Origin: a virus
Taxonomy: Duplodnaviria; Heunggongvirae; Uroviricota; Caudoviricetes
Reading direction: 5' to 3' (one strand)
Virus record (IMG/VR): IMGVR_UViG_2703718811_000010
Length of the DNA: 5,046 nucleotides
The stretch's first letter is position 1; the number at the start of each line of letters is the position of its first letter. The translations under genes were made by a program, and so were the position numbers. A model generated the notes under the pieces. It was not told where the DNA came from and ran no database searches. It saw only the letters and a program-made list of their open reading frames with translations. Shown in pieces: positions 4,218-4,298 of this stretch.

Positions 4218-4298
4218 GGTTATTTCCTTTTAGTGATGAACCCTGCGCACAGGAATAACCAGCCCAAAGAGGGTTAACCAGACCACTGCCGGTTATCC
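4218..4298 (-). promoter_or_regulatory. Cluster of GGTTA(W)NCC motifs in the ant leader, including an inverted repeat able to sequester the ant ribosome-binding site
   Basis: Plus-strand GGTTATTTCC (4218-4227), GGAATAACC (4252-4260, reverse complement GGTTATTCC), palindromic GGTTAACC (4272-4279) and GGTTATCC (4291-4298). In the minus-strand mRNA the middle element can pair either with the SD-containing GGAAATAACC just before the ant ATG or with the upstream GGATAACC. Confidence 0.35.

Follow-up and report, generated by a model that had tools for sequence, protein, structure and literature searches.

What is the role of the GGTTA..CC repeats that lie directly in front of ant, an antirepressor-like gene in the late region of a phage resembling the Shiga toxin (Stx) phages 933W and P13374? 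The gene is read from the minus strand of a 5,046-nt stretch of viral DNA (IMG/VR record IMGVR_UViG_2703718811_000010), the whole of which is called the window below. Comparison with related loci indicates that the repeats are one lineage's version of a widespread folded leader: the region upstream of ant, about 4382-4214 (−), is almost certainly a structured leader RNA of ~150 nt. We consider it probable (roughly 0.7), judging from the predicted fold, that this leader acts in cis as a translational repressor or switch by sequestering the Shine-Dalgarno sequence (SD) of ant.

The initial annotation, made from the window alone, reported four copies of the motif and proposed that they form either a translational switch in the ant mRNA or an array of operator half-sites. 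The four copies are indeed present exactly where they were placed, directly upstream of the ant start codon (Table 1). The pattern GGTTAN{0,3}CC occurs 12 times in the window (1.73 expected), a count reached by none of 200 shuffles; it includes palindromic GGTTAACC sites more than once, and the distinct sites number nine, five of them within 4165-4298. The motif itself is lineage-specific: in the commonest related ant leader (44 of 80 IMG/VR loci, 81% identical) its places are taken by GGATACC, CGGTGCC and GGATTCC. In the lineage of the window, the first three copies of the leader are the tip of one hairpin arm and the two alternative partners of that tip. A fifth copy of GGTTAACC, complementary to the copy at 4272-4279, is found at 4165-4172 inside the ant coding region (codons 15-17) and outside the conserved element.

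The minimum-free-energy (MFE) fold of the leader comprises one long imperfect hairpin of ~95 nt (5′ arm CCUUUCAGGAUGAGCCCUGGUGGAUAACCGG, 4319-4289; 3′ arm CUGGUUAUUCCUGUGCGCAGGGUUCAUCACUAAAAGG, 4262-4226) and a small hairpin, P0, upstream of it. The long hairpin is built of a lower, a middle (Mid) and two upper stems (Up1 and Up2), and the last four bases of the lower stem, AAGG (4229-4226), are the SD of ant, paired with CCUUU. Two further pairings span long distances. K joins the P0 loop to an internal loop of the 3′ arm and is a long-range pseudoknot, and P1 joins the sequence preceding the long hairpin to its apical region. The 5′-arm tip has a distal partner, Up2, used in the MFE fold, and a local one, P2, whose 3′ strand lies in a 19-nt direct repeat of the distal partner (repeat family D2); since P2 and Up2 share one 5′ strand, they cannot form together. 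The 5′ edge of the element is a terminator-like hairpin, and the identical sequence in locus L001 scored terminator-like.

Covariation of the leader fold

Two covariance models were used, R1 comprising P0 and the long hairpin with type-I (E. coli) seeds, and R2 comprising P0, P1 and P2. R1 found 94 true copies in 100 loci, with E-values from 1e-42 to 3e-5, and none in arc-ant-type Ant loci preceded by a ribbon-helix-helix (RHH) gene (L090-L103); R2 found 92 copies, 90 of them distinct. The window (4214-4374, −) scores 105.8 bits with R1 (E = 1.7e-24) and 99.1 bits with R2 (E = 7.7e-21). MAFFT-only alignments (A1, A2) misregister P1 and the lower stem between subfamilies, and two covariance-model alignments were used instead: A4, based on R2, and A3, which was fitted to neither P1 nor P2.

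On the R2 alignment, 91% of cells over all helices are paired, compared with 83% for column shuffles and 32-49% for slid partners. Double changes occur in 31 of the 43 pairs, and none of 500 shuffles reaches any of the observed measures. K, which is absent from every model, is the cleanest helix: all six pairs are changed on both sides, 93.4% of cells are paired, and at least 13 compensatory haplotypes exist, including UCUCAC:GUGAGA, UCACAC:GUGUGA, UCGCAC:GUGCGA, CCGCA:UGCGG, CCACAU:AUGUGG, CCGAAA:UUUCGG, CCGCAAU:AUUGCGG, CGCUC:GAGCG and CUAGCAU:AUGCUAG, with CGCAC:GUGCG in the window. The five modelled pairs of the P0 stem all show double changes across the family (TGCGC/GCGCA, TGCGT/ACGCA, TGCAC/GTGCA and GCGTA/TACGC; CGCTT/AAGCG in the window). 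The central pairs of P1 occur as AU47/GC22/UA10/CG7, UA45/CG35/AU7 and CG56/AU32 and are 98.6% paired on A4; identical pair types are seen on A3.

The arm tip covaries with both of its partners. Columns 113-116 of A4 show AU51/GC28/GU5/CG3 with the local P2 strand, and AU51/GC27/GU7/CG2 and UA47/CG21 with the distal Up2 strand; the P2 covariation is present on A3 as well. The initial annotation had the upstream copy of the motif take part in an alternation, which is borne out in part, its actual partners being copy 2 (4272-4281) and copy 3 (4252-4262).

Among the remaining stems, the middle and upper ones and the four inner pairs of the lower one also come out of RNAalifold, backed by compensatory changes. 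The two G's of the SD are paired with CC in 98% of cells (columns 77-78 with 203-204). The commonest ant-leader variant keeps the hairpin with CCCUG/CAGGG replaced by CCUUG/CAAGG, and the Photorhabdus leaders keep the stem with different sequences (UAUAGAAAU/AUUUCUAUA and AGAGCCUG/CAGGCUCU). In the divergent members (Photorhabdus, L240b, phi80 and L349b), the inner lower, middle and Up1 stems are preserved via multiple compensatory changes.

The kind of mismatch that is tolerated indicates the strand. Ratios of G-U to A-C in the internal helices are 89:6 for P2, 15:0 for Up1, 14:0 for Up2 and 8:1 for Mid, and this excess of G-U points to a structure in the sense RNA, not in the DNA or an antisense transcript. 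Taken over these alignments, the covariation is as extensive as in curated structured-RNA families. The folding z-score of the 141-nt core is only -1.96, so that the case rests on comparative evidence and not on folding energy.

Table 1. Features of the ant leader and its cargo gene, in window coordinates; sequences are given for the strand indicated.
Feature	Position	Strand	Sequence and remarks
Terminator-like hairpin	4352-4382	−	GAGGCACC-GUAA-UGGUGUCUU (4382-4362), U-rich tail 4361-4352; downstream of the lysozyme gene
P0 hairpin	4334-4352	−	Stem 4352-4346 with 4340-4334; loop CGCAC (4345-4341); MFE fold
P1, 5′ strand	4321-4327	−	CCAAAGA, immediately 5′ of the long hairpin; pairs with UCUUUGG
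Long hairpin, 5′-arm stems	4301-4319	−	Lower CCUUUCAGGAUGA (4319-4307), including anti-SD CCUUU; middle GCCCUG (4306-4301)
5′-arm tip (copy 1)	4289-4298	−	GGAUAACCGG; strand with two alternative partners
P2, 3′ strand (copy 2)	4272-4281	−	CUGGUUAACC; local alternative partner of the arm tip
P1, 3′ strand	4264-4270	−	UCUUUGG, apical region of the long hairpin; pairs with CCAAAGA
Upper-stem 3′ strand, Up2 and Up1 (copy 3)	4252-4262	−	CUGGUUAUUCC; distal partner in the MFE fold
K, 3′ strand (K3)	4246-4250	−	GUGCG, asymmetric internal loop of the 3′ arm; pairs with the P0 loop CGCAC
Long hairpin, 3′-arm stems	4226-4245	−	Middle CAGGGU (4245-4240); lower UCAUCACUAAAAGG (4239-4226)
SD-to-AUG spacer (with the SD G's, copy 4)	4217-4225	−	AAAUAACCG; not a conserved paired element
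Motif copy at the SD	4218-4227	+	GGTTATTTCC
Central motif copy	4252-4260	+	GGAATAACC (reverse complement GGTTATTCC)
Motif copy in P2	4271-4279	+	GGGTTAACC
Upstream motif copy	4291-4298	+	GGTTATCC
ant cargo gene	3647-4216	−	189 aa, P22_AR_N and ORF11CD3 domains (Pfam); ATG 4216-4214

Distribution and cargo of the leader

Its sequence relatives place the element among a group of ~150-nt leaders of enterobacterial lambdoid phages, usually situated just after an intrinsic terminator. Among the matches listed in two pattern scans (at least 120 per scan), the leader precedes many unrelated open reading frames (ORFs), with homology ending about the start codon. The cargo belongs to the Pfam families KilA-N, Phage_pRha, P22_AR_N, AntA, ANT (KilAC) and HNH_3+AP2. 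Homologous leaders accompany Ant homologues in IMG/VR, and phage P13374 carries a second copy of a ~100-nt element between Rz and terS, upstream of a Rha-like gene, whose similarity to the ant leader stops at AAAAGG. The leader is also present in P22, phi80, ES18 and Stx-converting phages, and divergent copies occur in Salmonella, Photorhabdus, Providencia, Yersinia, Symbiopectobacterium and Serratia symbiotica, as well as in Klebsiella, Enterobacter and Hafnia phages. Of 5,426 complete E. coli genomes, 725 gave megablast matches to the window-lineage leader, at a median of 4 places per positive genome.

Two or more copies often share one late region (L001 5553-5708; L240 4555-4706 and 5228-5388; L085 416-582 and 1342-1503; L349; L259; L260). 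Within one genome, the copies mostly have different complementary haplotypes of K and/or P1, a difference that may prevent mispairing between copies on one transcript.

A run of at least four T's lies within about 20 nt upstream of P0 in 74 of the 90 distinct members, and the upstream sequences inspected contain terminators formed by a GC-rich hairpin and a T-run. No sigma-70-like promoter was found on either strand of window positions 3000-5046, and none in the leader. With a terminator upstream and no promoter found in the leader, the RNA must come from terminator read-through transcripts, which we infer to be the Q-antiterminated late transcripts. A weak promoter picked out by eye (TTTCAC-17-TTTAAC) was rejected: it is not conserved, and it would leave P0 out of the RNA, contradicting the K covariation.

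The best-known members lie upstream of rha, in P22 (NC_002371, about 39486-39646; E = 4.8e-28 with R2) and in phi80 (JX871397, about 43626-43777, and a second copy). The annotated starts of P22 rha (GTG, ORF201; L359 2589-2660) and of phi80 rha (L360 5740-5778) fall inside the leader RNA, and the codon preceded by a proper SD is the ATG that closes the element (~39644 in the P22 record and ~43775 in that of phi80); the annotated proteins are therefore probably too long by about 12-23 residues. As summarised in one paper, the P22 and phi80 rha products are reported to be detrimental when mis-expressed in hosts deficient in integration host factor (IHF), where Rha blocks phage growth, and rha is regulated by IHF (PMC4936722). 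The phi80 annotation likewise carries a statement on rha and IHF-deficient hosts, and the reported harm fits a need for tight control. No canonical IHF site (consensus WATCAANNNNTTR) is present in window 4214-4400.

The P22 leader also contains P22F, an 89-nt RNA published in June 2026 in Noncoding RNA with no known function (AF217253, 21301-21389). Both infected cells and outer membrane vesicles contain it in abundance, and it reaches 926-2054 reads per million in P22-infected Salmonella (PMC13397905). Aligned to the P22 leader, P22F begins in the inner part of the lower stem, includes the SD and stops 6 nt short of the rha AUG. The P22 leader region thus accumulates as a stable RNA, and processing may be part of the mechanism. 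P22F comes from the same locus and is homologous in sequence to the window leader; it was reported as an 89-nt read cluster with an mfold hairpin, without the family, the covariation, P0, K and P1, the SD sequestration or the variable cargo (PMC13397905), and the unit described here is larger (~150 nt).

Probable translational control and competing explanations

In the predicted ensemble, the SD is unpaired with a probability of 0.016 for the window leader and of 0.24 on average in the family; with the upstream sequence shuffled, the family value is 0.42. Of 90 members, 65 have the long hairpin as their MFE structure. In a nested model, the state with P1 and P2 is on average 12 kcal/mol less stable than the long hairpin; in the window the two are about 10 kcal/mol apart (-59.0 for the long hairpin and -49.1 for P1 and P2). 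We hypothesize that the leader is transcribed within the late (lysis) transcript and acts in cis, the CCUUU:AAGG base of its dominant ~95-nt hairpin repressing translation initiation of ant by default. K and P1 would accompany this hairpin, and the 5′-arm tip would choose between P2 and Up2. In this manner the element may hold down or gate the translation of potentially harmful cargo, such as antirepressor-like DNA binders and HNH nucleases, from an abundant late mRNA. The set of P1 and P2 might be passed through during transcription, or might be an "open" state that some factor or RNase processing stabilises or resolves; that the leader is a genuine two-state switch seems to us an even bet.

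Several observations weigh against a repressor or switch of this kind. P1 and the complete lower stem do not coexist in a straight helix, and in simple geometry only one of the two can form. The model allows either an alternation between two states or a bent, compact double pseudoknot, and the compact fold is favoured by the similar lengths of the Mid plus lower and the Up plus P1 stacks. In subfamily II the SD is less fully occluded and the register of the lower stem is ambiguous; the family mean is the 0.24 given above. In the inner lower, middle and Up1 stems, sequence conservation is so high that most pairs carry few double changes, and all members come from Enterobacterales phages that often recombine, so that their sequences are not independent samples. 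The position of the P22F 3′ end suggests that the element may direct cleavage or yield a trans-acting RNA instead of, or besides, gating translation. Finally, the effect of the structure on translation is a prediction from fold and covariation.

Other readings of the locus account for part of these data. In the switch outlined by the initial annotation, the central copy of the motif (4252-4260) would alternate between the copy at the SD (4218-4227), hiding the ribosome-binding site of ant, and the upstream copy (4291-4298), setting it free. Its outline, a structured RNA occluding this site with mutually exclusive pairings that involve the motif, agrees with our results. Both pairings can be drawn in the window, the one with the SD and spacer as a contiguous run of 8, and the one with the upstream copy is real, being conserved as Up2/Up1 and used in the MFE fold. 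The wiring itself does not hold in relatives, however: the best contiguous run between central and SD copies is 3.82 for cognate and also 3.82 for non-cognate pairs, leaving the window as an outlier, and the spacer differs among members (UAAUUACCG, UGAGCACUG, UAACUCCG and others), the similarity of the second P13374 copy ending before it. The SD is instead paired with CCUUU (4319-4315) at the base of the long hairpin, and this occlusion coexists in the MFE fold with the pairing of the upstream copy, which would thus not free the SD. We regard this wiring as very unlikely. Still less credible is an operator array, in which the GGTTA..CC half-sites would bind a repressor of an ant promoter, for example an RHH protein, even though GGTTAACC is palindromic and the sites are clustered. 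No sigma-70-like promoter was found in the region scanned, and the motif is missing from most homologous leaders. Compensatory changes maintain complementarity there, and G-U is tolerated on the sense strand alone. The precedent of Arc and Mnt in P22, invoked in support of regulated ant expression, does not carry over: no arc- or mnt-like gene is adjacent, the lysozyme gene and the terminator-like hairpin occupying the upstream position. The 53-aa ORF put forward as a candidate regulator is 2.3 kb distant, lies on the opposite strand and encodes a DUF3950 protein.

Homology that stops about the start codon of unrelated cargo, in several copies per genome (the median of 4 places in positive E. 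coli), would also be expected of a recombination linker, that is, a conserved DNA boundary for exchanging cargo cassettes among mosaic lambdoid phages without any RNA function. Selection for DNA homology gives no compensatory double changes in five helices, two of them long-range, which makes the linker highly improbable as an explanation; such a role could be a secondary consequence of the conservation. A processing or stability element is the most serious competitor, although we still consider it unlikely: here the late transcript would be cut by an RNase, setting free a stable ~90-nt RNA like P22F that acts in trans, and/or separating the SD from the cargo ORF. The abundant P22F starts inside the 5′ strand of the lower stem and stops just before the rha AUG, and long imperfect hairpins of this type resemble RNase III substrates. 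Against this, the P22F ends, which are known from a single small-RNA sequencing study, do not appear to form an RNase III-type staggered pair across the stem, and P0, K and P1 lie outside P22F yet covary strongly, so that the selected unit is larger than the small RNA. Processing is compatible with sequestration of the SD and does not exclude it.

Relation to known systems and to the rest of the window

No Rfam 15 family was found at the leader in a window scan at E ≤ 1, and none at gathering score in 8 related loci; the models of c4 (RF01695), IsrK (RF01394) and riboswitches likewise gave no match there at E ≤ 1. RefSeq has no ncRNA feature under the leader matches examined, and no such element turned up in the literature searched on Stx-phage ant and the small RNAs Pas, AsxR and AgvB, in the Minerva preprint, or in the virus structured-RNA catalogue. 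Rfam does place STnc100 and AsxR genes near stx2B in P13374 (L001 290-549) and two STnc100-like copies in L240 (677-872 and 3723-3925), none of which overlaps the leader.

The closest functional analogue is IsrK-orf45-anrP, likewise an antirepressor-like gene in a lambdoid late-type position. In this system of the Salmonella prophage Gifsy-1, RNA structure silences translation of the antirepressor-like gene in a read-through transcript, and a structural change relieves the block; IsrK itself is a trans-acting RNA with a promoter and a terminator of its own, and its action involves a 45-codon leader ORF with translational coupling (PMC4825925). The architecture differs in our case, the leader having no conserved leader ORF. 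A leader peptide was considered and rejected: some type-I members have a 25-codon frame starting at an AUG in CAGGAUGA, but indels and stops break the frame in the window and in other variants.

Ant-type genes are under tight or post-transcriptional control elsewhere, by the Arc/Mnt operators and the sar antisense RNA of P22 immI and by the c4 antisense RNA of P1 and P7, the latter with complementary segments within one transcript. In contrast, the window has no arc or mnt genes, no antisense promoter and no c4 hit. Control of the immI type was rejected on these grounds: the lysozyme gene and the terminator-like hairpin lie upstream, promoter-like sites were not found on either strand of 3000-5046, and R1 matches nothing in arc-ant-type loci. 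Ant homologues behind RHH genes carry a different leader. Homologues of the Ant N-terminal domain in Erwinia, Yersinia, Photorhabdus, Mixta and others (L090-L096, L099, L103) directly follow a small RHH-like ORF and have another conserved hairpin, GAAGCCCnnnn...GGGCTTC, about 35 nt before the start, possibly an element of the sar or terminator type.

In phage T4, late genes and free-standing homing endonuclease genes (lysozyme e, I-TevI, mobE) have their SD in a hairpin of the read-through transcript, which limits the production of potentially harmful nucleases; these hairpins are simple and are relieved by transcripts from an internal late promoter. The leader described here similarly buries the SD, and its cargo includes HNH+AP2 endonucleases, but no internal promoter was found and there are two additional long-range pairings and the alternative pairing of the tip. 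Mutually exclusive pairings in one leader, backed by coupled covariation, are known from the folding pathway of hok mRNA, and SD occlusion in a pseudoknotted fold from translational riboswitches such as preQ1-II and SAM-II. The ant leader shares the first trait and, in its predicted fold, the second, but has no toxin-antitoxin context and no Rfam riboswitch match. A riboswitch would combine an aptamer-like fold of several helices with an alternative pairing that acts on the SD. The leader has a complex covarying fold and the P2/Up2 alternative, of which one state would then have to free the SD; its cargo is not metabolic and does not hint at a ligand.

Further candidates were rejected. CAGGAUGA resembles the CsrA SELEX motif, the GGA of which is absent in subfamily II. 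The G-A pairs required for a K-turn in the asymmetric loop are not conserved, and no hammerhead-like CUGAUGA/GAAA core is present. An intrinsic terminator or attenuator is not called at the long hairpin, which is followed by AAAUAACCGAUG; the terminator lies upstream of the element.

Read from the minus strand, the surrounding genes are lysozyme (4490-5023), a gap of 273 nt, ant, a 50-aa ORF, and Rz with Rz1. Positions 3600-4560 are 99.7% identical to phage P13374, where the order is annotated as lys-ant-Rz, and annotation of Stx phages places the anti-repressor Ant between lysozyme and Rz; the P22_AR_N antirepressor N-terminal domain of the protein is supported by Pfam at E = 5.9e-46. Downstream of Rz, about 1 kb (~1950-3020) is AT-rich and without a convincing ORF, with terminator-like hairpins, e.g., around 2150-2190 and 2790-2830, and (AAT)6 at 2113-2130. 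At the matching position, P13374 has its second leader and Rha-like gene, both absent from the window. Within 1756-1941, the 53-aa ORF on the plus strand encodes a DUF3950 (YlcI/YnfO-type) protein rather than an established RHH one, and its 3′ end enters a perfect 7-nt tandem repeat (ACTGACA x6.1, 1899-1941). A Nu1-like small-terminase ORF (909-1436, −) directly adjoins what is left of a homologue of lambda tail-assembly protein I, a C-terminal fragment (364-912, −), suggesting a large internal deletion from terL through the tail genes at 364-1436 (−), and the source of the window is thus probably a defective prophage.

We tentatively speculate, at odds well short of even, that the leader is a factor-responsive riboregulator of a new class, in which a double pseudoknot with a bistable tip gates translation of antirepressor-like and HNH "moron" genes of lambdoid late operons. 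The factor would be a protein of the host or the phage, an RNase or a small molecule, and the leader could be the missing cis element behind the harm that has been reported for decades of P22 and phi80 rha in IHF-deficient hosts.

The leader is a widespread and previously uncurated structured RNA, present in textbook phages and in Stx-converting phages alike. It fronts genes able to affect repressor status or to cut DNA, within an operon that also carries stx and the lysis genes. The family gives the P22F RNA a structural context, and the leader makes the old question of rha regulation by IHF directly testable.
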